DNA of 64,000 nucleotides from Thermodesulfobacteriota bacterium (GTDB lineage: Bacteria > Desulfobacterota_D > UBA1144 > Nemesobacterales > JAJCZQ01), in the NCBI GenBank assembly GCA_965215275.1, contig OZ244044.1, positions 1,797,561-1,861,560 on the forward strand, read 5' to 3'. Positions 1,692 through 51,615 of the stretch are shown here, one piece after another. The translations under genes were made by a program, and so were the position numbers. The notes under the pieces are model-generated. The model did no database searches, had not been told where the DNA came from, and worked only from the letters and a program-made list of their open reading frames with translations. Each line of letters starts with the position of its first letter. The first letter of the stretch is position 1.

Positions 1692-2804
1692 TTACCTTAG
1701 TTTCAGGGTGGCCAGTGCCATAAGGGCAAACACTATTGATATTATCCAGAACCGTATTACGACTTTGGACTCTGACCATCCGCTTAGTTCAAAATGATGG
1801 TGCAGGGGGGCCATTTTCAAGATCCTTTTTCCCGTTAATTTAAATGACGTCATCTGCAGGATCACTGAAAGTGCCTCTATAACGAAAAGTCCACCTACGA
1901 TCACCAGAAGCAGTTCCTGCTTGATTACTATTGCTGAAAACCCTATGACTGCTCCCAGCGTCATAGAACCTACGTCTCCCATAAAGACCTGGGCCGGATG
2001 AGAGTTGTACCAGAGGAACCCTAGACACGCCCCGCCTATTGCAGATAGAAAAACTGCCAGTTCTCCGCCCACGGGTATATAGGGTATCTGCAGGTAGCTT
2101 GAAAATTCAGAGTTCCCGGCAATGTAGGCCAGGATAATGTAGGTCGATATCGCAACTGCGATTGAACCTATGGCCAGTCCATCGAGTCCGTCGGTGAAAT
2201 TGACGGCGTTCGATGTACCGATTATGACAAGGAGTGCAAATGGGATATAAAAGATCCCCAGTTTTATAACGGCTTTTTTAAAAAATGGAAAGACCACTGA
2301 CGTATGTTCATAGAAGGTATTCTCGTTAACTCCATAGGACATGGTGAACACCCCTTCCTGCACGGAAAGTAAAAGAACTATGAACATGGAACCGACTATC
2401 ATCTGGAGCAGGAGCTTGACCCTTGCTCTCATGCCGTTGTTACTGGTGAGCTTGAACCAGTCGTCCAGAAATCCGATAAGCGAGAAGCCGATCATGGAAA
2501 CAAGCATCACGATCATTATCATGTTGCTTATATTTACCCATAAGAGAGTTGAAATTATAATTGCAAGGACGATGAAGGTACCTCCCATCGTGGGGGTTCC
2601 TGATTTGGCTTTGTGGGAAGATGGTCCGTCTTCTCTGATACTTTCCCTGACCTGCCTTGCCTGCAGGAAATTTATGAACTTCTGTCCGAGGAATATGCAG
2701 ATAAGGAACGCGGTAACCCCTGCTCCGAACGAACGAAAAGTGATGTATTTGAACACGTTGAATAAAATAAAATGTTCTTTCAGATAAAATAAAAAATAGA
2801 GCAT
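1692..2804 (-). CDS. mraY: phospho-N-acetylmuramoyl-pentapeptide transferase
   Basis: 370-aa polytopic membrane protein with the dcw-cluster position between murF and murD. Confidence 0.9.
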   Translation of the reverse strand: MLYFLFYLKEHFILFNVFKYITFRSFGAGVTAFLICIFLGQKFINFLQARQVRESIREDGPSSHKAKSGTPTMGGTFIVLAIIISTLLWVNISNMIMIVMLVSMIGFSLIGFLDDWFKLTSNNGMRARVKLLLQMIVGSMFIVLLLSVQEGVFTMSYGVNENTFYEHTSVVFPFFKKAVIKLGIFYIPFALLVIIGTSNAVNFTDGLDGLAIGSIAVAISTYIILAYIAGNSEFSSYLQIPYIPVGGELAVFLSAIGGACLGFLWYNSHPAQVFMGDVGSMTLGAVIGFSAIVIKQELLLVIVGGLFVIEALSVILQMTSFKLTGKRILKMAPLHHHFELSGWSESKVVIRFWIISIVFALMALATLKLR

Positions 2805-2808
2805 TGTA

Positions 2809-4182
2809 TCAGTTCAGAAACTTTATCGTGTTTTCCATTTTCATACCGCGGGACCCCTTAAGCAGTATAAAATCATTATTTTCTGCGTTTGCAACAAGAA
2901 TTCTTGCAGCTTCCTCGTGCGTTTCAACGTGCAGGTTGTCCACTTCACCTTCAAGTTCTTCATTTATAAGCTTTGATAGTTCTCCATAGGTTATCACCAT
3001 ATCTATGTTCAGGTTTTTTATATGCCTGCCAATTTCCTTGTGCTCGCTGCCGCTGCCGGGTCCGAGTTCAAGCATATCTCCCAGTACGGCGATCACCTTG
3101 TTGTCGTTTTTTAACCTGGAAAGTTCAGTAAGGGCACTGGACATGGACGTGGGATTGGCATTATAGGAGTCGTTGATGATCCTGAATCCATGATCGGTCT
3201 GTATTATTTCAAGTCTCATGCTTACGGGTTCGTACGTTTTTATGCCTTCAACTATCTCCTCCAGCGAATACCCTAATGAGCATGCTATTGCTGACGCACA
3301 GAGAGCGTTCATAACGTTATGTGTACCAAAGCCCTTTATTCTCGCTTCCTCGGACCTGCCGTTTATGATCAGGTCGAAGGTTATGGCTTCAGTTCCCCTG
3401 CTCCTTATATTATCAGCACGTATATCAGCGCTCTTGCTGCTTAGACCGTAGGTGATCTTACGGCAGTTCAGTCCGGAGGCCATTATACTTATGTACGGGT
3501 CGTCCACGTTTACAATAAAGTCATTGTCCCTGCCGAACTTTTCGATCATCTCTCCCTTTGCTTTTGCCACGCCTTCAAGGGTTTTCATCTTTTTCAGGTG
3601 TCCTCTGCCGATGTTCGTTATAGCTCCTATGTCCGGTTGGGCCATACTGGTGAGCTGTCTGATCTCGCCAAAGTCGTTCATCCCGATCTCAGCCACGCAT
3701 ATATCGTGGCTGTCGTTCAGTTTAAGCAGCGTCAGCGGGAGTCCGAGATGGTTGTTTAGATTGCCCTGATTTTTCAATACCTTCTTTTTTACTGACAGGA
3801 TGCCGGCGGTTATTTCTTTTGTTGTTGTTTTACCGTTCGTGCCGGTGATACACGCGACTTTAAGCTTTTTATAACGATTTCTCCATGTGTTTGCCATCTG
3901 TCCGAGCGCTTCAGCAGTGGAACGCACTTTCATTATCGTTTTATTATCTTTCATTTTCAGATTTTCAGGTACACGTTCAAGTATCACGCCGGCTGCCCCT
4001 TTTTCAAATGCCTCGTTAATAAAGTCATGACCATCGAACCTGTCTCCCCTTATGGCGATGAAGAGATCTCCTGAAACTATCTTTCTGCTGTCAATTGATA
4101 TATCGCTGAAGTACCTTGCTGCGGACCTGTCCGACACTACTTCACAACCTGATGACCTTATTATGAATTCTCGTTCGAACAT
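2809..4182 (-). CDS. murF: UDP-N-acetylmuramoyl-tripeptide--D-alanyl-D-alanine ligase
   Basis: 457 aa with Mur-ligase P-loop ITGTNGKTTTKE; sits between murE and mraY. Confidence 0.9.
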   Translation of the reverse strand: MFEREFIIRSSGCEVVSDRSAARYFSDISIDSRKIVSGDLFIAIRGDRFDGHDFINEAFEKGAAGVILERVPENLKMKDNKTIMKVRSTAEALGQMANTWRNRYKKLKVACITGTNGKTTTKEITAGILSVKKKVLKNQGNLNNHLGLPLTLLKLNDSHDICVAEIGMNDFGEIRQLTSMAQPDIGAITNIGRGHLKKMKTLEGVAKAKGEMIEKFGRDNDFIVNVDDPYISIMASGLNCRKITYGLSSKSADIRADNIRSRGTEAITFDLIINGRSEEARIKGFGTHNVMNALCASAIACSLGYSLEEIVEGIKTYEPVSMRLEIIQTDHGFRIINDSYNANPTSMSSALTELSRLKNDNKVIAVLGDMLELGPGSGSEHKEIGRHIKNLNIDMVITYGELSKLINEELEGEVDNLHVETHEEAARILVANAENNDFILLKGSRGMKMENTIKFLN

Positions 4183-14304: not shown

Positions 14305-15057
14305 TTGTATCCTAATCTCATTGAATTCAGTTCCTTTCATATCTCATCCTTTTACGTAATGGTGCTGGCAGCCTCTCTTGTTGCTTACTACGTATGTGAG
14401 AAAGACCTGGTCAGAAGAGGGAAAGATAAAAGTACTGCTGATATAGTGCTGATCGCCAGCTTTATAGGCGGGATGGTGGGTGCAAAGCTGCTTTTTTTGT
14501 ATCAGAATGTGGCGTTTTCAGAGGTGGTCCAGGACCCGCTCCGCTATTTTTCGTCGGGCTATACGTTCTTTGGCGGGTTTATCGGGGCTTTACTTATGCT
14601 CTATCTGGTGTCTGTATATAAAAAGGTGAGTTTCTGGTACCTGACCGATATTTCTTCAGCTCCGGTCATTATTGCTTATGGAGTAGGCAGGATCGGGTGC
14701 TTACTCGCTGGAGATGATTACGGGGTACCAACGGATGTGCCTTGGGCAATGTCGTTCCCGAACGGTTCTCCTCCTACTCTGGAAAATGTCCATCCAACCC
14801 AGATCTATGATTCGATCAGTATGCTTATCGTGTTTTACTTCCTGTGGAACCTGAAGAGCAGAGGTCGTGCGACCGGTTTCCTTACTTCACTGACCTTTAT
14901 TGTACTTGGTACACAGAGGTTCTTGATGGAGTTTATAAGGAACACCACACCGAGTTCCGTTTATGGATTATCCCAGGCGCAGCTGATAGCCCTGTCTTTG
15001 GTATGTGCAGGTATAATAAAAATGGGAATTATATACTTAACTATGCAAGATAAATGA
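14305..15057 (+). CDS. lgt: prolipoprotein diacylglyceryl transferase
   Basis: 250 aa membrane protein; the Lgt signature G..GRIGCLLAGDDYG is present. Confidence 0.85.
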   Translation: MYPNLIEFSSFHISSFYVMVLAASLVAYYVCEKDLVRRGKDKSTADIVLIASFIGGMVGAKLLFLYQNVAFSEVVQDPLRYFSSGYTFFGGFIGALLMLYLVSVYKKVSFWYLTDISSAPVIIAYGVGRIGCLLAGDDYGVPTDVPWAMSFPNGSPPTLENVHPTQIYDSISMLIVFYFLWNLKSRGRATGFLTSLTFIVLGTQRFLMEFIRNTTPSSVYGLSQAQLIALSLVCAGIIKMGIIYLTMQDK

Positions 15058-15072
15058 CATTAGCATTGTAAA

Positions 15073-15735
15073 TTATACACGAATGGTTTTTTTCAATTCT
15101 CCGTTATACCACTCCCCGCCCATTTCCTTTTTGATATAATTTATTTTAAAATCAATATTATCTTTTAAATCATCTATCATAAGATCTTTATTATTTTTAT
15201 ATACATCTATATCGTTTTGTCCTACGATCTCACCCATGTCTGGACACAACACGCAAAATTCACCATTTCTATTAGAATCAGAAAAAGAATATATTCTGTA
15301 TTTACCTTTATATGTTTCAATCTGTTTTAAATCCTTCATATAATAATCTGGATTATATTTTTCATTTATCATGTAATCACTCCTCCTTTTACTTTCATAT
15401 TTACGGGTAACTCCTTCTTTTTTATCAAGTTCTTTTATTCTATCTAATTGTAATTCAAATTGATTTATCTGATAATCCTTCGCATCGTCCCTTTCTCTGC
15501 CAGACACAGTAAGTACTCCAACCTTTTTACCATATTCTGCATGCTTAAATTTCCTATGACCTCCAGTTCCTTTTATCTTCACATAACCAGCTTTTTTTAT
15601 TCGCTTAATTAACTCCCGAACAGATATAACTGTTTTTCCTTCATAAATATGCTCAACCAATGTTGGTTTACGCTCATAAATCTGTTGAATTCTTGTTAGT
15701 TTATTATCTTCTTCCATATTTTTTCCTTTTATCAA
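15073..15735 (-). CDS. HicA/YcfA-like domain protein with a ~140-aa C-terminal extension of unknown function
   Basis: Residues ~40-100 (VRELIKRIKKAGYVKIKGTGGHRKFKHAEYGKKVGVLTVSGRE) resemble the HicA toxin fold (G-S/G-H-x-x-f-x-H). The remainder has no recognised domain. Confidence 0.45.
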   Translation of the reverse strand: MIKGKNMEEDNKLTRIQQIYERKPTLVEHIYEGKTVISVRELIKRIKKAGYVKIKGTGGHRKFKHAEYGKKVGVLTVSGRERDDAKDYQINQFELQLDRIKELDKKEGVTRKYESKRRSDYMINEKYNPDYYMKDLKQIETYKGKYRIYSFSDSNRNGEFCVLCPDMGEIVGQNDIDVYKNNKDLMIDDLKDNIDFKINYIKKEMGGEWYNGELKKTIRV

Positions 15736-15800
15736 TTTTCTATATTATTCAATAACCTTTATCCTTATATGTAATAGAACAAATTAAAATCAATTATATT

Positions 15801-17075
15801 TTATTTACAATAACCAAGTCTTTTGTTTTCTTTTATAAGTCCTGATAATGTGAATTTGTTGCTCTTCAATTTATTACAGGGTCCACAAAGTAAAATTCTG
15901 TTCGATATATGGTTTAGTCCACCATCAGAACGTGGAGTGTTATGATCTAATTCAAGATATCTCGGGTCATCAAATTGACGGTTGCAACCCTGACATTTGC
16001 TCTCCTCTTGATCTAACAGATATTTAAGCATTTCTGCTCGAGTCATTTTATGACCTTTAGGTTCATCTATCTTTAATTTGGTTTTGAGAAAAGGAACTGC
16101 CTCTTCACCTTTATCTGTTCTAACTGGTAAATCTGAAGTCCAAGTTATATTTTTTCTAAAAAGCTGATGCTGTGTTCCAGAGTATCCTTTTTTCCTACCT
16201 TTTACTATTAAGCCTTGCTTTTCAAACAAACCAAGAATTACATCCTTAGCCTTATCCCATATATCAATTCCTACCCACTGCCTGTTTAGTTTTTCAGAAG
16301 CTACTAATGTAGTTCCACATCCACAAAAAGGGTCTAATACTATATCTCCTTCATTAGAAGATGCTTTTATTATACGTTCATATAATGCTGGAGGTTTTTG
16401 TGTAGGATAACCTATTCGTTCTTTTGCTACAGCATTTAAACTATCAATTATCCAAGTGTCATGACATATTCTTCCTCTATCTAAATAATACTTATACTCT
16501 TTGCTGTCTATTTTTCTTATACGATATGCTCTACCATCTTTATCTACTTTATCAAAATGGTTGGATTTTTCCTCTCGGTATGGTTCATATTGTGGATTAA
16601 ATATCTTATTTTTGGTTTTACTATAAAACAGTATTATATCATGTTTTTTACTGAACGACTTCTTACTTGCCCCGCCAGTATTGTATTTCCACACTATTTC
16701 ATTAACAAAGTTTTTATATCCAAAAATAGCGTCCATAATGGCTTTTATATAATGACTTGCTGTTGGATCACAGTGCAGATAAATACTTCCATCTTTTCGT
16801 AGTATCCTTTTCATCTCTAATAAACGAACAGCCATGAAACAGACAAACGCACCCATTCCGTCCGAATGAGCATTTCTTGCACTTTCTATAGCTTCCATGA
16901 GTTCTGGAAAATCATCAGTTATTTTATCAACCCACTCTTGATGAACATCCCTGTCCCAAGACCATCTGTCCTGAAAAGAAGCACCAGAAGATAAACTATC
17001 AGGTGTAGCATGAAAATCTCTATTTTTGTTAAAAGGAGGGTCAGTTGCAATTAAATGAACAGATTCGCTGTTCAT
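15801..17075 (-). CDS. beta-class DNA N6-adenine/N4-cytosine methyltransferase fused to a C-terminal HNH zinc-finger nuclease. As annotated this is an N-truncated form; the full-length ORF would start at 17155 if the G9 tract were G10
   Basis: Motif IV DPPF sits at residues 12-15 and motif I LDPFCGCGTT follows it. C-terminus CQGCN...DHN...H...N...CGPCN is an HNH motif. The in-frame upstream sequence encodes the conserved LFHGDNLDFLRA segment but has no start codon in this frame. Confidence 0.8.
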   Translation of the reverse strand: MNSESVHLIATDPPFNKNRDFHATPDSLSSGASFQDRWSWDRDVHQEWVDKITDDFPELMEAIESARNAHSDGMGAFVCFMAVRLLEMKRILRKDGSIYLHCDPTASHYIKAIMDAIFGYKNFVNEIVWKYNTGGASKKSFSKKHDIILFYSKTKNKIFNPQYEPYREEKSNHFDKVDKDGRAYRIRKIDSKEYKYYLDRGRICHDTWIIDSLNAVAKERIGYPTQKPPALYERIIKASSNEGDIVLDPFCGCGTTLVASEKLNRQWVGIDIWDKAKDVILGLFEKQGLIVKGRKKGYSGTQHQLFRKNITWTSDLPVRTDKGEEAVPFLKTKLKIDEPKGHKMTRAEMLKYLLDQEESKCQGCNRQFDDPRYLELDHNTPRSDGGLNHISNRILLCGPCNKLKSNKFTLSGLIKENKRLGYCK

Positions 17076-17133
17076 TGCTCGGAGAAAATCTAAATTGTCT
17101 CCGTGAAATAAAGTGCGATTCTGCCAATTTGAT

Positions 17134-17142
17134 GGGGGGGGG
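17134..17142. repeat. G9 homopolymer (C9 on the coding strand) in the 5' region of the methyltransferase-HNH gene; candidate phase-variation tract
   Basis: With G10 the ATG at 17155 reads MKASTPPPSNWQNRTLFHGDNLDFLRAMNSESVHLIATDPPF in one frame. With G9 that frame stops after ~20 codons. Confidence 0.7.
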
Positions 17143-17167
17143 TGGAGGCTTTCATAGTCGTTTGTTC

Positions 17168-17380
17168 TTAGCGTTTACGCTTTTTGTCTGATCTATTTTT
17201 ATTCAATAACCGAACTTTATCGTTTTCTTTCTTTACTTGATCAGATTGCTTTCTTGGAGTAAATAAAGCACGAGCTATTTGCTCTGGTGAAACATCAACA
17301 GGCGGTAGTAGATAAGCATGCCTCTTGGTCATTGCATCCTCCTTAACAACATTATTACATACTAAATAACCATTAAGCAA
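17168..17380 (-). CDS. small basic protein (70 aa), translationally coupled to the transposase
   Basis: 8-bp overlap with the upstream transposase ORF; Lys/Arg-rich C-terminus. Confidence 0.4.
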   Translation of the reverse strand: MLNGYLVCNNVVKEDAMTKRHAYLLPPVDVSPEQIARALFTPRKQSDQVKKENDKVRLLNKNRSDKKRKR

Positions 17381-18317
17381 TTAAATCTTCATACTTCAAA
17401 CGTTTTCCGATCATTGAAGCGTATATCTCTTGCATCATTTTTTCAGTATCGTATTTCCGCAAGTTGTGCCGATTGGCAAATTCATTAACGTATCTATGTA
17501 GATGTTTAGGACTAATATGGTGAAAGGTCCCGTAATACCCTCTTTTTAGTAAAGCCCAGAAAGATTCTACACCGTTAATATGAGCTTGTTTGTTTACAAA
17601 TTCTCCAACGCTGTGTTTTACCGTCTTATGATTAAAACTCATACCTTCATAGCTCTTATAATCGTCTGTATAAACCGTTGAATTACCATCTACATGTTTA
17701 CCGATAAATTCTTGCAAACTTGATTTGTCGGTATTATTAACAACAGATGCACTTATATTGTTTGTGTTTCTATCTTTTACACCAACTACAGCCGTCTTGC
17801 CAACGACCCCACGACCTGCTTTTAGCTTTTTGCTTGAATGTTTATTTTGTTCAAGACCACCAAAATATGCTTCATCCACTTCTACGGGACCTGACATCTT
17901 ACCACCCATATTCATCCAAGCCTCACGTAACCTTTGAGCCATGAAATAAGCAGATTTCTGTGTTATTTTTAAATCTCTGTAAAGTTTCATGCTGGATACA
18001 CCTTTTAATGAAGTGGACCATAAGAAAATAGCAATAACCCACTTTTGATAACTGATCTTCGATCTTTCCATTAAACTACCAATACGAACACTGAAATTGC
18101 GTCTGCAATCACCACACCAATATGGCATAGGTTTTCCAGAAGGAACTTTACTCACTTTTACACTACCGCATCTAGGACAATGTAAATGCTTGTTATCTTT
18201 TCCCCAACGTTGCTCTTCAAACCACTGTTCTGCAACTTCATTATTAGGGAATTTCTTAAATAACTCTATAAGTGATATTCCTTTACGATAATGTTTTCCA
18301 GGTGCTTTATATGACAT
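17373..18317 (-). CDS. IS1595-family (ISXO2-like) DDE transposase
   Basis: N-terminal zinc ribbon HCPRCGS...CGDCRR, then an ISXO2-like DDE domain (VYTDDYKSYEG..., FHHISPKHLHRYVNEFA). Confidence 0.8.
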   Translation of the reverse strand: MSYKAPGKHYRKGISLIELFKKFPNNEVAEQWFEEQRWGKDNKHLHCPRCGSVKVSKVPSGKPMPYWCGDCRRNFSVRIGSLMERSKISYQKWVIAIFLWSTSLKGVSSMKLYRDLKITQKSAYFMAQRLREAWMNMGGKMSGPVEVDEAYFGGLEQNKHSSKKLKAGRGVVGKTAVVGVKDRNTNNISASVVNNTDKSSLQEFIGKHVDGNSTVYTDDYKSYEGMSFNHKTVKHSVGEFVNKQAHINGVESFWALLKRGYYGTFHHISPKHLHRYVNEFANRHNLRKYDTEKMMQEIYASMIGKRLKYEDLIA

Positions 18318-18450
18318 ACTATTTATCCTCTTGATTATTGATTTTATAGTATTATACTATCATACAAACCTTGCATAGTCAAGTATATAATTCCCATAAA
18401 AATAGTACTGATATCATCAGGAAAGAAAGAGGAAAGGGCAGGTTGATCAT

Positions 18451-35576: not shown

Positions 35577-36584
35577 TTAATCGTTAGCGCCAATACCTTT
35601 TTCTTTTCTGTAAGTGTCAAGGACCTCTCTTTTAACCGTTGGATGGAGAGTGAAATCATTTGGCGGTGCGCCCTCTGCAGATGCTTTTACCTCTTCAGGT
35701 GAGAGATAGCTGAACTTTGTATCTCCAGCTACTTCGCCCAGTTGTGAAGGTTCAAGTTTCCAGTCCGTTAAAGCTTCATCGCCAAGACCAAATCTCTTTG
35801 TGAGTTTGTTGATCTCTTCAAGTCTGCCTGGCAGCGGACCTTGAGGCTGGATCAGTCTCAGATCTTCAAGGAGTTTCACCGCTTCCGGGTCCCTGCTGAA
35901 GGGATTACCAACTCTTTTCTCAAAGAACATGGTCTCAAAAGGCGGGCGACATCTCTGACCACCGGCTTCCATGCTTTCTGCTGGATACCCTACGGTCATG
36001 AGCCAGCTGAACACATAGGTATCGGGCAGGTTGAACTTTGACTTGGTATTTCTTCTTGCTCCGCCGCTGGCACCATTAAGGCAGGTTCCCAGTCCCAGTG
36101 CCGTAGCTACCAGTGATGCGTTCTGAATGGCATTCCCCAGATCAATTCCCGCAAGCCTGTGCATAATTGCGTCAGGCAGCAGACCCGGCAGGGGGAACAG
36201 ATTTGATACCCTGTCATACTCCCAGCCATGTGCCTTGTCCAGTGCTCCGGTCCTCATAAGATCATGGATGGATTGTCCCTGTGTGTCATAATTAGCCATA
36301 TCGTAGCACCAGAAAATAAGCACAGGTGCCATCTGAGTGGTTATCTGACTCCAGTCCGAGATAAACTCCCATATTTCAGGGTCTTCATCTCTGTATACTA
36401 CAATTGCTCTCTGACCATTGAAGTTACCTGCTGATGGTGCAAGCCTGGAAGCTTCCAGCATTGCCTGGATCTTCCATTTCTCAACCTGTTTATTAGGTTC
36501 ATACCATCTGATGGACCTTCTGGTGCCAATTGCACTGAAAGTATCCATTACACTAACTTCGCCGGATGAAGGTAAGTTACTCAT
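35577..36584 (-). CDS. nitroreductase-family protein with a C-terminal extension
   Basis: 335 aa; RRSIRWY...LEASRLAPSAGNFNGQRAIVV matches the nitroreductase N-terminal signature. Confidence 0.65.
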   Translation of the reverse strand: MSNLPSSGEVSVMDTFSAIGTRRSIRWYEPNKQVEKWKIQAMLEASRLAPSAGNFNGQRAIVVYRDEDPEIWEFISDWSQITTQMAPVLIFWCYDMANYDTQGQSIHDLMRTGALDKAHGWEYDRVSNLFPLPGLLPDAIMHRLAGIDLGNAIQNASLVATALGLGTCLNGASGGARRNTKSKFNLPDTYVFSWLMTVGYPAESMEAGGQRCRPPFETMFFEKRVGNPFSRDPEAVKLLEDLRLIQPQGPLPGRLEEINKLTKRFGLGDEALTDWKLEPSQLGEVAGDTKFSYLSPEEVKASAEGAPPNDFTLHPTVKREVLDTYRKEKGIGAND

Positions 36585-36682
36585 TCCATGTTTCCTCCTT
36601 AATATTTACGAATTTAATTATAAATCTGTTTAAGTATAATGATATTGTTTTATGGTTCATTTGTCAAGATGTAAGTAAATTA

Positions 36683-38013
36683 GGGAATTATAAAGGAAAG
36701 TTGACAAGTTTACCTTAACTGTTCCGAGTGCAGAGTTCCTCTATCCCCGATCTCTTTTGATCTGATACTCTTAGCACTCATCGGGAGTATTTCTACCTTA
36801 TTCCCACCCGATATGAAGTCTCCTTCATCAAGAGTATTGATATTTTTACCTGCATTTATGTCCCTGTCTTCTGAATAACCGCAATACATACAGTTAAAAG
36901 TCCTGACTGACAGAGGCTGTTTGGGATTTACCTTTCCGCATTCAGAACAGGTCCTTGTTGTATAATGAGCTTTAACCAAAACCAGCTTGCCTCCAGCTAT
37001 CCCGGCTTTGTAAGCAAACTGACGTTTGATCTTGCCCCATTGCTGTTCCGTTATGGATTTAGCAAGATGATGGTTCTTTACCATTCCTTGTATATTCAAA
37101 TCCTCTAATTTTATATGATTACTCTTCTTTACGGTCTCTGTTGTTAATCTGTGTATAGCATTATTTTCACGATCGGTAGTTCGTTCCCATTCCTTCGCTA
37201 ACGATAAAACTTTCTTCTTTCTGCTGTCAGAACCTTTTACCGCTCTTGAAACAATTCTTTGCTTTCTTTTCAGTTCCTTCCTGTCTATCCTGATACCGGG
37301 AATTTTAGTTCCATCTGAAAAAGCTAATCTGTTTGTTATTCCAAGATCTATTCCTATGGATTTATCCAAAGGTCTCTTCTTCTCATTTGTAAACTCACAC
37401 AGAAACTGTATCTTTATTCTTAACGAACTCCTGATTATTCTTATTACAGTTTTAGGTTGCTTTAAAACAACTCCGTCAGGCATACTACCTTTGAAAGATA
37501 ACCTCCCAGTCCCTTTATCGTTAAATAAGTCCTTCTGCCGATCTTTTCAATGTTTTTATAATTGTTTGTTTCAAAACTTCTGACGGGTCTGTTCGGACCT
37601 TTATATTTTGGTCTGCCTACCTTTTTTGCTTTCCTGCCAGCTTTTTTATTCCTTAAATAATTCAGATAGGGACCGTAAGCATTATCCAGCCTTTCCAGAA
37701 CGCTTCTTTGAGCTACCACGTTAAACTTTTCAAATTCCCTGTCCTGCTCCCGGACCTCGGTCAGTTCGTTAAACTGCTCGTATTTGGATACGGTTTTTTC
37801 ATACCAGTCATAAGACCTTAATCTGTGATACAGGGCACCGTTGTAAAGATCGGTAAGCTGTTGCAGAAATTCATCCAGCCTTTTATGAAATCCACTATCT
37901 GCCTTTACAGTTCTTGTAATCGTTCTAACCATATAATAACATTACCTTTTTCTATTCTGTTTGTCAATTTTTTCTTGTTAACTTATTTTTGTCAACTTTT
38001 CTTTATAATTCCC
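36683..38013 (-). mobile_element. TnpB-only (IS200/IS605-family, IS1341-like) element bounded by 25-bp near-perfect inverted repeats
   Basis: GGGAATTATAAAGGAAAGTTGACAA at 36683-36707; its reverse complement with one mismatch at 37989-38013; tnpB lies between them. Confidence 0.6.
36710..37932 (-). pseudogene. tnpB: tnpB (RNA-guided RuvC-like nuclease / IS605 OrfB), split by a frameshift near 37462-37483
   Basis: The 156-aa N-terminal ORF and the 257-aa C-terminal ORF overlap in different frames. RuvC-I IGIDLGI, RuvC-II IKLEDLNIQG, zinc finger CSECG...CMYCG and RuvC-III DRDINAGKNI are all present. Confidence 0.8.
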
Positions 38014-38084
38014 GTAAATTACATTTACAAAATATATCAGTTAGTTTAAAATTAAACATAATTTCATCAAGGAGAGACTAGATC

Positions 38085-39245
38085 ATGAGCGACCTGAAAG
38101 ATGTTTATATCATAGGGGTAGGAAACACGGCCTGCGGAAGATTTCCAGACAAACCGGCACATATCCTTGCAAGGGAAGCGGCCTGGGCAGCGATCAAGGA
38201 TGCCGATATTCATCCCCGGAAAATAGAGATTGCTTTTTGTGGTCATGTTTATCAGGGTATGGGAGTGGGACAGAGAGCACTTAAGGAGATCGGTCTTGTA
38301 GGGCAGCCCACTATTAACGTTGAAGGGGCGTGCGGAAGCGGAACGCTGTCGTTCTGGGAGGCATGGAGGACGGTGGCATATGGCCAGTACGACATAGCAC
38401 TTGCTCTGGGCGTTGAGAACCTGAGCAGGGTACTGTCTGGCGGGCCGTTACCGCTTGAAGAGGACGATCTTGAGGTTTCATTAGGTATGGGCATGCCGGG
38501 ACTTTACGCGATAAGAGCAAAAAAATATATGGATGAATACGGGGTTACGATGGAGCAGCTCGCCAAGGTGGTCGTTAAGAGCAGGTACCATGCTTCACTG
38601 AACCCGAATGCACAGTACAGAAAGACCACAACGGTCGAAGAAGTACTTGGAGCTCCGATGATCGCGGACCCGCTCACGCGTAACATGTGCTGTCCCGTTG
38701 GTGATGCAGCGGCAGCGGCAGTGCTCGTTTCGGAAGATCTTCTGGAAGACTATGCCAAAAAACTGCCGATCAAGGTACTGGGCTGTATTGCTCAGTCAGG
38801 TAAGTACAGCAGTGCGACCGGTCTTACGTGTGACCCGTCGGAGAACGTTGTCAGAACGTCGAAACTGGCGTATGAAATGGCGGGATTAGGTCCTGAGGAT
38901 ATGGACCTGGCCGAGATACATGATGCGTTCTCCATTGCCGAGATGATGGTCGTGGAAGCACTTGGGTTTTGTGAAAAAGGAGAAGGTGCAACGCTGATCG
39001 ACGAGGAAAGTACCTGGCTGGGAGGAGATAAGGTTGCCGTTAATCCAAGTGGTGGCCTGTTGTCTCGTGGGCATCCCGTTGGTGCGACCGGACTGCTGCA
39101 GACCGCCGAACTGGTGTATCATCTGAGAGGAGATGCCGGTGAACGTCAGGTTCCGGACGCCAAGGTCGGTATTATAGAAACAATGGGTGGAGCTCAGCCG
39201 GCAATGGATGGTATAACGTGCGTTGTCAGCATACTGGGTAAATAA
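38085..39245 (+). CDS. thiolase-family protein (acetyl-CoA acetyltransferase / SCP-x-like)
   Basis: 386 aa; condensing-enzyme fold with Cys in VEGACGSG and a C-terminal GHPVGATG. Confidence 0.75.
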   Translation: MSDLKDVYIIGVGNTACGRFPDKPAHILAREAAWAAIKDADIHPRKIEIAFCGHVYQGMGVGQRALKEIGLVGQPTINVEGACGSGTLSFWEAWRTVAYGQYDIALALGVENLSRVLSGGPLPLEEDDLEVSLGMGMPGLYAIRAKKYMDEYGVTMEQLAKVVVKSRYHASLNPNAQYRKTTTVEEVLGAPMIADPLTRNMCCPVGDAAAAAVLVSEDLLEDYAKKLPIKVLGCIAQSGKYSSATGLTCDPSENVVRTSKLAYEMAGLGPEDMDLAEIHDAFSIAEMMVVEALGFCEKGEGATLIDEESTWLGGDKVAVNPSGGLLSRGHPVGATGLLQTAELVYHLRGDAGERQVPDAKVGIIETMGGAQPAMDGITCVVSILGK

Positions 39246-51189: not shown

Positions 51190-51367
51190 TTTAACAAAGT
51201 CGGTGTATTGTTCTGCCTAACTGTAAATAGTGATAGTAATATCTGTATCCCAGAACAGTATGCATAATTATATATAAATCCTGAAAAGTACATTATGACG
51301 GTACAATTTCTACTTTTCATTTCAATCCCGTGGCAAACATGGTGTTTTTAGCTGAGAGAACAAAACT

Positions 51368-51550
51368 TTGTTTCATGGAGACAATTTAGATTTTGTACGA
51401 GCAATGAATAGTAATAGTGTAGATATAGTAAAAACAGACACACCTTTCAATAAAAGCAAAGACTTTTCTGCTGACAGAGCAGTATGGTTTCTGAAGCAAA
51501 GGTTTCAGTATAGATGGTCTTGGGATGACTCTGTTCATGAAAGGTGGTAA
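51368..51550 (+). pseudogene. N-terminal remnant (60 aa) of a beta-class DNA methyltransferase, homologous to the island methyltransferase at 15801-17155
   Basis: MFHGDNLDFVRAMNSNSVDIVKTDTPFNKSKDF...YRWSWDDSVHERW aligns with (L)FHGDNLDFLRAMNSESVHLIATDPPFNKNRDF...DRWSWDRDVHQEW. Confidence 0.7.
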
Positions 51551-51615
51551 GACAAGACCGCTGATAACTTTTCTATTATGTAAAGTTGCGTATATAGTTC
51601 CCTAATTTACTTCTT

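Follow-up and report, generated by a model that had tools for sequence, protein, structure and literature searches.

TnpB Nucleases and Their Transposon Hosts

The accepted role of TnpB is the re-cutting of the scarless excision site of IS605 and IS607 elements, by which the element is restored, and this logic has no obvious carry-over to transposons with DDE transposases, which make target duplications. For this reason the TnpB-DDE associations of prokaryotes are regarded as rare and poorly understood (PMC13565253). Here a 1.33-kb unit is described that holds tnpB as its only gene and is bracketed by terminal inverted repeats; it lies at positions 36683-38013 of a 64,000-nucleotide stretch of DNA (the window) from a Thermodesulfobacteriota bacterium (assembly GCA_965215275.1, contig OZ244044.1, positions 1,797,561 to 1,861,560). 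The unit is very probably a non-autonomous element of the IS1595 family of DDE transposons, related to eukaryotic Merlin, which has no transposase gene and carries only tnpB and its predicted omega RNA as cargo.

Several described systems are close to this unit. With the elements of the IS1341 group, for example those with ISDra2-type TnpB, it shares the protein family, a predicted omega RNA overlapping the tnpB 3′ end, and presumably, by analogy, the use of flanking DNA as a guide. However, the IS1341-group elements possess neither terminal repeats nor duplications and are characterized by subterminal hairpins and Y1 TnpA (PMC13565253), while the window element has both repeats and a duplication. 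The insertion of IS200/IS605 elements takes place 3′ of a fixed target of 4-5 nt.

The second group is formed by TnpBs associated with DDE transposons. In the main text of the Altae-Tran et al. study (2023; PMC10691335) six DDE-associated TnpB branches (DDE-1 to DDE-6) with inverted terminal repeats are described, together with solo TnpBs whose ends are nearly identical to those of transposase-bearing relatives. As in these branches, so far as that text presents them, the window tnpB is situated inside symmetrical inverted terminal repeats of DDE transposon type, and its 3′ end is 27 nt from the transposon end, the distance used in that text being at most 250 bp; unlike the branches described there, none of the copies found here has a transposase in cis. 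The DDE family named in the same main text is IS630, and a review lists ISL2, IS630, and IS1031 (PMC13565253). IS1595 is not mentioned in the main text of PMC10691335, and a full-text literature search for TnpB and IS1595 yielded no paper describing their association. TnpB within DDE-transposon ends is a known category, to which the IS1595 link appears to add a new member.

The IS1595 family, the prokaryotic relative of eukaryotic Merlin, is known for 8-bp duplications and for transposases with zinc ribbon and DDE domains, and the Merlin elements have GG-initial terminal repeats (PMC8101967). The window element resembles this family (Siguier et al. 2009; PMC8101967) in its 8-bp duplication, in the GG-initial repeats, and in partner transposases with the Zn_ribbon_IS1595 and DDE_Tnp_IS1595 domains; it differs in having no transposase, in carrying an RNA-guided nuclease gene as cargo, and in a predicted RNA that takes in the terminal repeat. 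According to Yoon et al. (2023; PMC10711439), the scaffold of the right-end element RNA (reRNA) of Fanzor1 and Fanzor2* includes both terminal repeat and duplication; those elements, like the present one, are non-autonomous, have terminal repeats and a target duplication, and encode nothing but a TnpB-family nuclease (PMC10711439). In likeness to the Fanzor RNAs, the last helix of the omega RNA is predicted to be built from the terminal repeat. Unlike Fanzor, the present element is bacterial and encodes a short TnpB of 407 amino acids with a canonical D-E-D RuvC site, and its RNA is predicted from sequence.

Element Outline and Origin of Its Ends

The 1.33-kb unit contains tnpB and its putative guide RNA between terminal inverted repeats. 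The sequence GGGAATTATAAAGGAAAGTTGACAA at 36683-36707 pairs with its inverted copy at 37989-38013 over 25 nt with one mismatch, and the arms can be extended to 37 nt with 84% complementarity, so defined that the right-end repeat (tnpB 3′ side, minus strand) covers 36683-36719 and the left-end repeat (tnpB 5′ side, minus strand) covers 37977-38013. Within the window GGGAATTATAAAGGAAAGTTGACAA has just two occurrences at up to three mismatches, with none expected according to 100 shuffles. Directly outside both ends an exact 8-bp direct repeat is found, GTAAATTA on the plus strand (TAATTTAC on the tnpB strand), at 36675-36682 on the 3′ side of tnpB and at 38014-38021 on its 5′ side. This pair is the target-site duplication, and it was not recorded in an earlier description of the locus made from the sequence alone (the sequence-only reading).

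Between the repeats tnpB is the sole gene, located on the minus strand and present as two open reading frames (ORFs; 37932-37462 and 37483-36710); no Zn-ribbon and DDE transposase is encoded inside. The stop codon (36710-36712) falls within the extended right repeat, 27 nt from the element end. The G+C content of the element is 38%, compared with 43% for the window. The sequence-only reading had described the 25-nt repeat with one mismatch, the tnpB-only content, and a stop codon adjoining the left-hand repeat of the plus strand, and all of this is borne out by the present outline, in which the repeat is longer and the stop codon lies inside it.

An exact-pattern scan for the 25-mer, performed on one genome per species (596 Gb), gave matches at six loci in metagenome-assembled genomes (MAGs) labelled Thermodesulfobacteriota, Dadabacteria, Gammaproteobacteria, Poribacteria, and unclassified bacteria. 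In L001 and L002, for which both ends were retrieved, the 25-nt repeat stands exactly at the element boundary, and the window core is identical to it in 25 of 25 positions. In the Dadabacteria MAG (L002) a unit of 5,028 bp lies between the inverted copies, is flanked by the duplication TAAATTTG, and encodes a 310-amino-acid protein with DDE_Tnp_IS1595 (4.5e-41) and Zn_ribbon_IS1595 domains (PF12762 and PF12760) and, as further cargo, a methyltransferase-HNH (MTase-HNH) fusion and a trypsin-like protease. L001 has identical repeats at the ends of a 5.2-kb cargo unit, and its duplication is CAATTTAA. The position of the repeat had been set beforehand as a test of the outline, and it is exactly at the boundary in every other copy retrieved.

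The ends of the window element (GGGAATTAT...) are IS1595-type terminal inverted repeats, and since the unit lacks its own transposase, it can belong to this family only in non-autonomous form. In the ISfinder classification ggnnatTAT ends are typical of the ISNwi1 subgroup, and variants with passenger genes are known.

The sequence-only reading had treated the unit as an odd IS200/IS605 element with inverted repeats, and this assignment is not borne out. An IS200/IS605-group (IS1341-type) element, mobilized by Y1 TnpA in trans and having inverted ends only incidentally, would agree with the standard OrfB_IS605 and TNB domains of the protein and with the usual classification of tnpB-only elements in the IS1341 group (PMC13565253). 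It is nevertheless extremely improbable, as the repeat equals, in 25 of 25 positions, the one carried by a transposon with DDE_Tnp_IS1595, as exact 8-bp duplications are present at five independent insertions in contrast to the IS200/IS605 family, which has neither terminal inverted repeats nor target duplications (PMC13565253), and as neither the window nor the surroundings of any copy showed a tnpA.

A candidate trans-acting partner of the tnpB element is located about 18 kb from it in the same window. This intact IS1595-family transposon (15024-18395, minus strand; 15016-18403 with its flanking 8-bp duplication ATAAAAAT) has the 26-nt terminal repeat GGGAATTATATACTTAACTATGCAAG (25/26) and encodes a 314-amino-acid DDE_Tnp_IS1595 transposase (17373-18317, minus strand). 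Its cargo includes an N6/N4 DNA methylase-HNH fusion (15801-17075, minus strand), the same MTase-HNH cargo being present in L002, as well as a HicA-like ORF (15073-15735, minus strand) and a small ORF at about 17150-17330. The terminal 10 nt of its ends are common with the window tnpB element, and 12 nt are common with the tnpB element of locus L007.

Some side observations concern the IS1595 transposons themselves. The cargo of L001 comprises a methylase-like ORF of the 870-residue class and a nested transposase-like ORF of 590 amino acids, and L005 carries a frameshifted IS1595 transposase. The identical 25-nt repeat of L001, L002, L003/L006, L004, and L005 occurs in MAGs of at least four phyla and with varied cargo, which suggests that one IS1595 lineage may have spread horizontally in recent time; the names of these MAGs give a hint that sponge or coral symbionts may be involved.

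Other tnpB Copies in the Same Kind of Shell

Related tnpB genes with 27-88% identity were found in the same type of shell, at unrelated sites and with different 8-bp duplications. The closest of the listed loci, L007/L008 (TnpB 87% identical to the window copy), has the terminal repeat GGGAATTATATAGTTAAGTTGACAAG and the flanking 8-mer TTTTTTTA and is inserted between citrate synthase and pyridine-nucleotide oxidoreductase genes. L094 (37-39%) possesses a perfect 24-nt repeat, GGGAATTATGTATTTAAGTTGACA, and the 8-mer TTATACTT; in L092 (39-40%) the ends read GGAAATTATG... and ...CATAATTCCC, with flanking 8-mers that agree at 7 of 8 positions; L093 (36-40%) has a 25-nt repeat. IS1595-like repeats also bound L013 (2917-4136; 32%), with the 8-mer CAAGTTAT, and L141 (viral contig, 1823-3118; 27%), with the 8-mer CTCCCTAA, while in L062 (about 1162-1278; 35%) the contig cuts the left end and the right-end tip only is seen. 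With the window copy included, exact 8-bp duplications of differing sequence are present at five independent tnpB insertions.

In a blind search of 143 TnpB loci with enough flank, an exact 8-bp duplication combined with an inward inverted repeat was found only in shell loci, all of which have the GGGA(A/T)TTAT tip. The best flanking inverted-repeat score was 8-13 for generic TnpB loci versus 17-24 for the clade. Around the retrieved tnpB loci of the close clade no IS1595 transposase was detected up to a distance of 3 kb, nor was one found in the 2-3 kb flanks of control TnpB loci. The terminal repeats co-diverge with TnpB, and the architecture is constant down to 27-39% TnpB identity, in that a repeat precedes the start codon by about 70-85 nt and the reading frame ends at the right repeat or within it. 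Because of these shells, duplications, and scores, the absent transposase, and the co-diverging repeats, the combination of tnpB with the repeats is to be judged old, recurrent, and non-autonomous, and not a product of chance nesting.

The distant TnpBs of L013, L141, and L062 (27-35%), which come from unrelated metagenomes and, in one case, a viral contig, carry repeats of the GGGA(A/T)TTATATAC... type, and for this reason the IS1595-type shell is, as far as the comparison of these loci indicates, not limited to the close clade. L013 and L141 had entered the analysis as generic controls from scans of metagenome and viral collections with a TnpB alignment, and these scans gave just generic relatives of at most 35% identity. 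The tblastn search of a plasmid collection produced only matches of about 30% identity and was uninformative.

Another type of inverted repeat (GGTAGTGGT...TTTGAC, scores 12-19) flanks tnpB in L035, L052-L054, and L032/L033, where 8-bp duplications are absent; it may represent a further transposon family hosting TnpB.

Predicted Omega RNA at the Right End

The last 170 nt or so of the element are about 97% identical between the window copy and L007, against 84% overall. Five right-end regions (window 36683-36844 of the minus strand, L007, L094, L092, and L093), representing four independent lineages, were used as RNAalifold input and gave a consensus of four helices with compensatory changes in 17 of 34 pairs. 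Under this structure 86% of the cells are paired versus 35-49% when the partners are slid by 1-3 columns, the doubly changed pairs number 17 versus 2-7 in the slid controls, and none of 500 shuffles matches the observed values. The covariance model built on this alignment finds the untrained homolog L175 and places it exactly at the 3′ end of its tnpB, with a score of 51 bits (E 2e-9); on 160 other TnpB loci it gives marginal hits only, with 15-21 bits (L062, which has the IS1595-like tip, L050, and L012).

No Rfam family was found at the gathering threshold or at E ≤10. Single-sequence folding of the 3′ end was not significant (z = -1.28), and therefore the support for the RNA comes from the comparison between copies and not from thermodynamics. 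By this comparison a structured RNA, conserved and covarying between the copies, extends over the 3′ end of tnpB and the right terminal repeat, and the predicted omega-RNA (reRNA) scaffold is placed at 36683-36844 on the minus strand. An omega-type RNA overlapping the tnpB 3′ end had been anticipated by the sequence-only reading, which proposed a covariance or fold prediction as a check; the alignment-based covariance speaks for the scaffold, and the single-sequence fold alone does not.

Two of the helices are of special interest. Helix 2 (TCGGG-YGGGAAY...-CCCGA) falls within the coding sequence, and it accounts for the conservation of the SGGN peptide. In helix 4 the sequence GAACAGUnnnn pairs with the tip of the right terminal repeat (...nnnnAUAAUUC), and its nnnn positions track the variable positions of the repeat lineage by lineage; the partner segment is absent from the left end and from the ends of the transposase-bearing L002. 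Helices 1-3 are retained in L175, and the GAACAG motif, which is situated about 40 nt inside the end, is kept even in this locus, which has no clear terminal repeat.

This conservation of GAACAG could mark an ancestral IS605-type right end, as would be the case if an IS605-type tnpB had landed by chance in an IS1595-derived miniature element, with an omega RNA ending before the repeat and no functional unit formed. Such nesting is very improbable in view of the architecture that has lasted, with co-diverging repeats, across TnpBs at 27-39% identity, in view of the covariation of the bases after GAACAG with the variable repeat positions, and in view of the absence of the helix-4 partner from the left end and from the transposase-bearing elements.

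The bases after GAACAG were also considered as a guide, in which case the terminal repeat itself would be the guide and TnpB would be aimed at IS1595 ends. They fit the left end over just 5-10 nt, and a role as the 5′ strand of helix 4 explains them better; this candidate was rejected. As a separate observation, the tnpB start in L175 (386-4271; P0014, 42% identity) overlaps the end of an ORF for an 872-amino-acid DEAD/ResIII helicase, and L175 may be an immobilised or domesticated copy.

Proposed Mechanism, Guide, and Target-Adjacent Motif

In the mechanism proposed for the non-autonomous IS1595 element, a trans-acting IS1595-family transposase, for which the window transposon at 15024-18395 is the candidate, would bind the GGGAATTAT... 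repeats and insert the unit, with the 8-bp duplication as a result. The left repeat contains a promoter-like sequence (TTGACA, 17 nt, AAAAAT) facing tnpB, and the gene would be transcribed from this TTGACA. The omega RNA would use the right repeat as its last helix and read out into the flank, and every insertion would gain its own guide, drawn from the duplicated 8-mer, from the DNA that lies past it, or from both. Directed by this RNA, TnpB would cut its insertion site wherever that site is unoccupied, and recombination would copy the element back, which would move the IS605 logic onto a DDE element, as proposed for Fanzor.

The presumed guide-donor flank, a 3′ extension of the omega RNA at 36655-36682 on the minus strand, consists of the duplicated 8-mer and about 16-20 nt beyond it and is assigned only by analogy with IS605 TnpB and with the Fanzor reRNAs, which extend about 15 nt past the target duplication (PMC10711439). 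In the five tnpB elements with perfect duplications the bases directly 5′ of the left-side duplication, read on the tnpB strand, are aaTG, ggTG, ggTG, caTG, and ccCG. Thus TG is present in 4/5 and G in 5/5 of the tnpB elements, and TG is present in 0/3 of the transposase or cargo elements (tata, gtta, gaat). The nominal probability of at least four TG in five is 7e-5, a value to be read with the fact that the pattern was noticed post hoc on three of those elements and then checked on two, of which one has TG and one CG. No mirrored CA was found on the other side of the element. If the TG motif is real, TnpB would cut a combination of target-adjacent motif (TAM), 8-mer, and right flank that is found only in the unoccupied site.

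It is conceivable, but for the present doubtful, that a whole bacterial TnpB lineage switched from IS605/IS607 to IS1595 (Merlin-related) hosts, with the last omega-RNA helix rebuilt from the terminal repeat, the guide taken from the duplicated target and flank, and ...TG 5′ of the left-side duplication serving as the TAM. If this were true, cutting would be confined to the unoccupied site, into which the element would be copied anew, and the lineage would provide a prokaryotic working model both of the Fanzor arrangement and of the benefit that a nuclease may bring to a duplication-making DDE transposon.

Several observations weigh against the interpretation of the unit as an IS1595 derivative with a repeat-containing omega RNA. 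The transposase of the window IS1595 transposon is only 43% identical to that of L002, and the repeat agrees at 17-18 of 26 positions; a transposase with a repeat identical to that of the window element was not found in the source genome, no source-genome protein being among the best 120 matches listed in either transposase search. L093 has the repeats with the duplication missing, and L175 shows only a decayed repeat tip (GATCATTCAA). The RNA covariation comes from only four independent lineages, and the structure was derived from the same alignment. An empty site was not recovered, as the related assemblies in which the flanking genes were found by exact look-ups carry the insertion.

Its small elements (1.2-1.3 kb), present in bacteria in several copies, their clear repeats and duplications, and a predicted, covarying omega RNA that includes the repeat could make this lineage a tractable system for the questions where the guide starts, what the TAM is, and whether the nuclease helps a DDE element to persist, which are the same questions as for the eukaryotic Fanzors. 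In genome annotation such elements receive the IS200/IS605 label by default, which is wrong as to the mechanism of mobility.

The tnpB Gene and Its Frameshift

The N-terminal ORF of the window tnpB (37462-37932, minus strand; 156 amino acids) is colinear with the N-terminal 143 residues of the 407-amino-acid paralogs, its last 13 codons being out of frame. The C-terminal ORF (36710-37483, minus strand; 257 amino acids) matches the Pfam domains OrfB_IS605 (1.5e-14) and Cas12f1-like_TNB (8.5e-20) (PF01385, PF07282) and includes RuvC-I, II, and III, the zinc finger, and a C-terminal tail overlapping the omega RNA. The alignment shows that the RuvC residues D196, E277, and D358 and both CxxC pairs of the zinc finger are intact, in agreement with the sequence-only reading, in which all these motifs were held to be retained.

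In comparison with the intact homolog L007 (84% DNA identity) the sole frame-breaking difference is the loss of one T of a TT at 37509/37508, by which GGGACTTGG in L007 becomes GGGACTGG in the window copy; the only other indel, of 13 nt, is in the non-coding left end. The frameshift site (37506-37516, minus strand) consists of the heptamer A_AAG_GGA (37516-37510) followed by CT|GG with the missing T. The frameshift as such had been recognized in the sequence-only reading, and its position at about 37470 had to be corrected to about 37508, the former being a mere zone of overlap between the two ORFs.

With the frames joined, a protein of 407 amino acids is obtained that is 87-90% identical to the full-length paralogs. 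Six intact tnpB paralogs, P0001, P0002, and P0121 among them, are 84-99% identical to each other and probably belong to the same genome as the window copy, which is the most divergent (its own fragment is designated P0003). All eight retrieved paralogs and orthologs are uninterrupted ORFs. Because the paralogs are intact, the window copy is most likely a pseudogene or decaying copy.

The sequence-only reading had left the choice between recent inactivation and ribosomal frameshifting, and of these inactivation is favoured because all eight homologs are uninterrupted. Programmed -1 ribosomal frameshifting at A_AAG_GGA, by which the split gene would yield full-length TnpB, would draw on the position of the heptamer, which immediately precedes the deletion and fits the X_XXY_YYZ register when read in the upstream frame. 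A simulated -1 slip there gives a 407-amino-acid product with one residue off the paralog consensus, leucine 142 to threonine (TIKGLG to TIKGTG), and the sequence downstream is able to fold into a modest hairpin (-13 kcal/mol over 60 nt). This explanation is nonetheless very improbable, because the heptamer is no more than the coding sequence of the conserved IKG motif and is found also in the intact copies, where slipping would do harm. In 8/8 other paralogs and orthologs there is a single ORF, comparative support is missing, and the analysis showed no stimulatory structure that is conserved.

An assembly or sequencing error, with the gene intact in the organism, is rather unlikely. In its favour, the indel affects one base only, the genome was assembled from a metagenome, and the rest of tnpB, catalytic residues included, is intact, as is the omega-RNA region, with its high identity to L007 across the last 170 nt. 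Against such an error, the missing base belongs to a TT dinucleotide and not to a long homopolymer, and the position of the window copy as the most divergent paralog is consistent with an older copy.

Insertion Site and Neighbouring Features

The element is inserted between a nitroreductase gene (35577-36584, minus strand) and a thiolase gene (38085-39245, plus strand), neither of which is disrupted. Just outside the element two divergent promoter-like sites are found, one for nitroreductase at 36639-36667 on the minus strand (TTGACA-17-TATCAT, 11/12) and the other for thiolase at 38024-38052 on the plus strand (TTTACA-17-TAAAAT); the insertion parts them and both are intact.

The insertion is also present in the assemblies of two other samples, as indicated by contigs that break within the element at both ends. 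One of these contigs, L009, aligns by positions 1-70 with window 37946-38021; its left end lacks the 27 nt between two TTTGTCAA repeats, and its left terminal repeat reads GGGAATTATAAAGAAAAATTGACAAAC. The 27-nt difference is either a strain polymorphism or a contig-end artefact.

A decayed remnant of a mobile element occupies an intergenic position in the window at 51250-51615. It contains CAGAACAGTATGCATAATTATATATAAATCC, which resembles the helix-4 motif of the tnpB right end, an N-terminal fragment of the MTase-HNH gene at 51365-51601 (44% amino acid identity across 66 residues), and a terminal-repeat-like end, GTATATAGTTCCC, which ends at 51603 and is followed by TAATTTACTT. The latter is the same 10 nt that follow the right end of the tnpB element on the tnpB strand, and a 15-nt identical string, TTCCCTAATTTACTT, is common to both places, which could come either from a preference for targets that contain AATTT or from a history common to the two.

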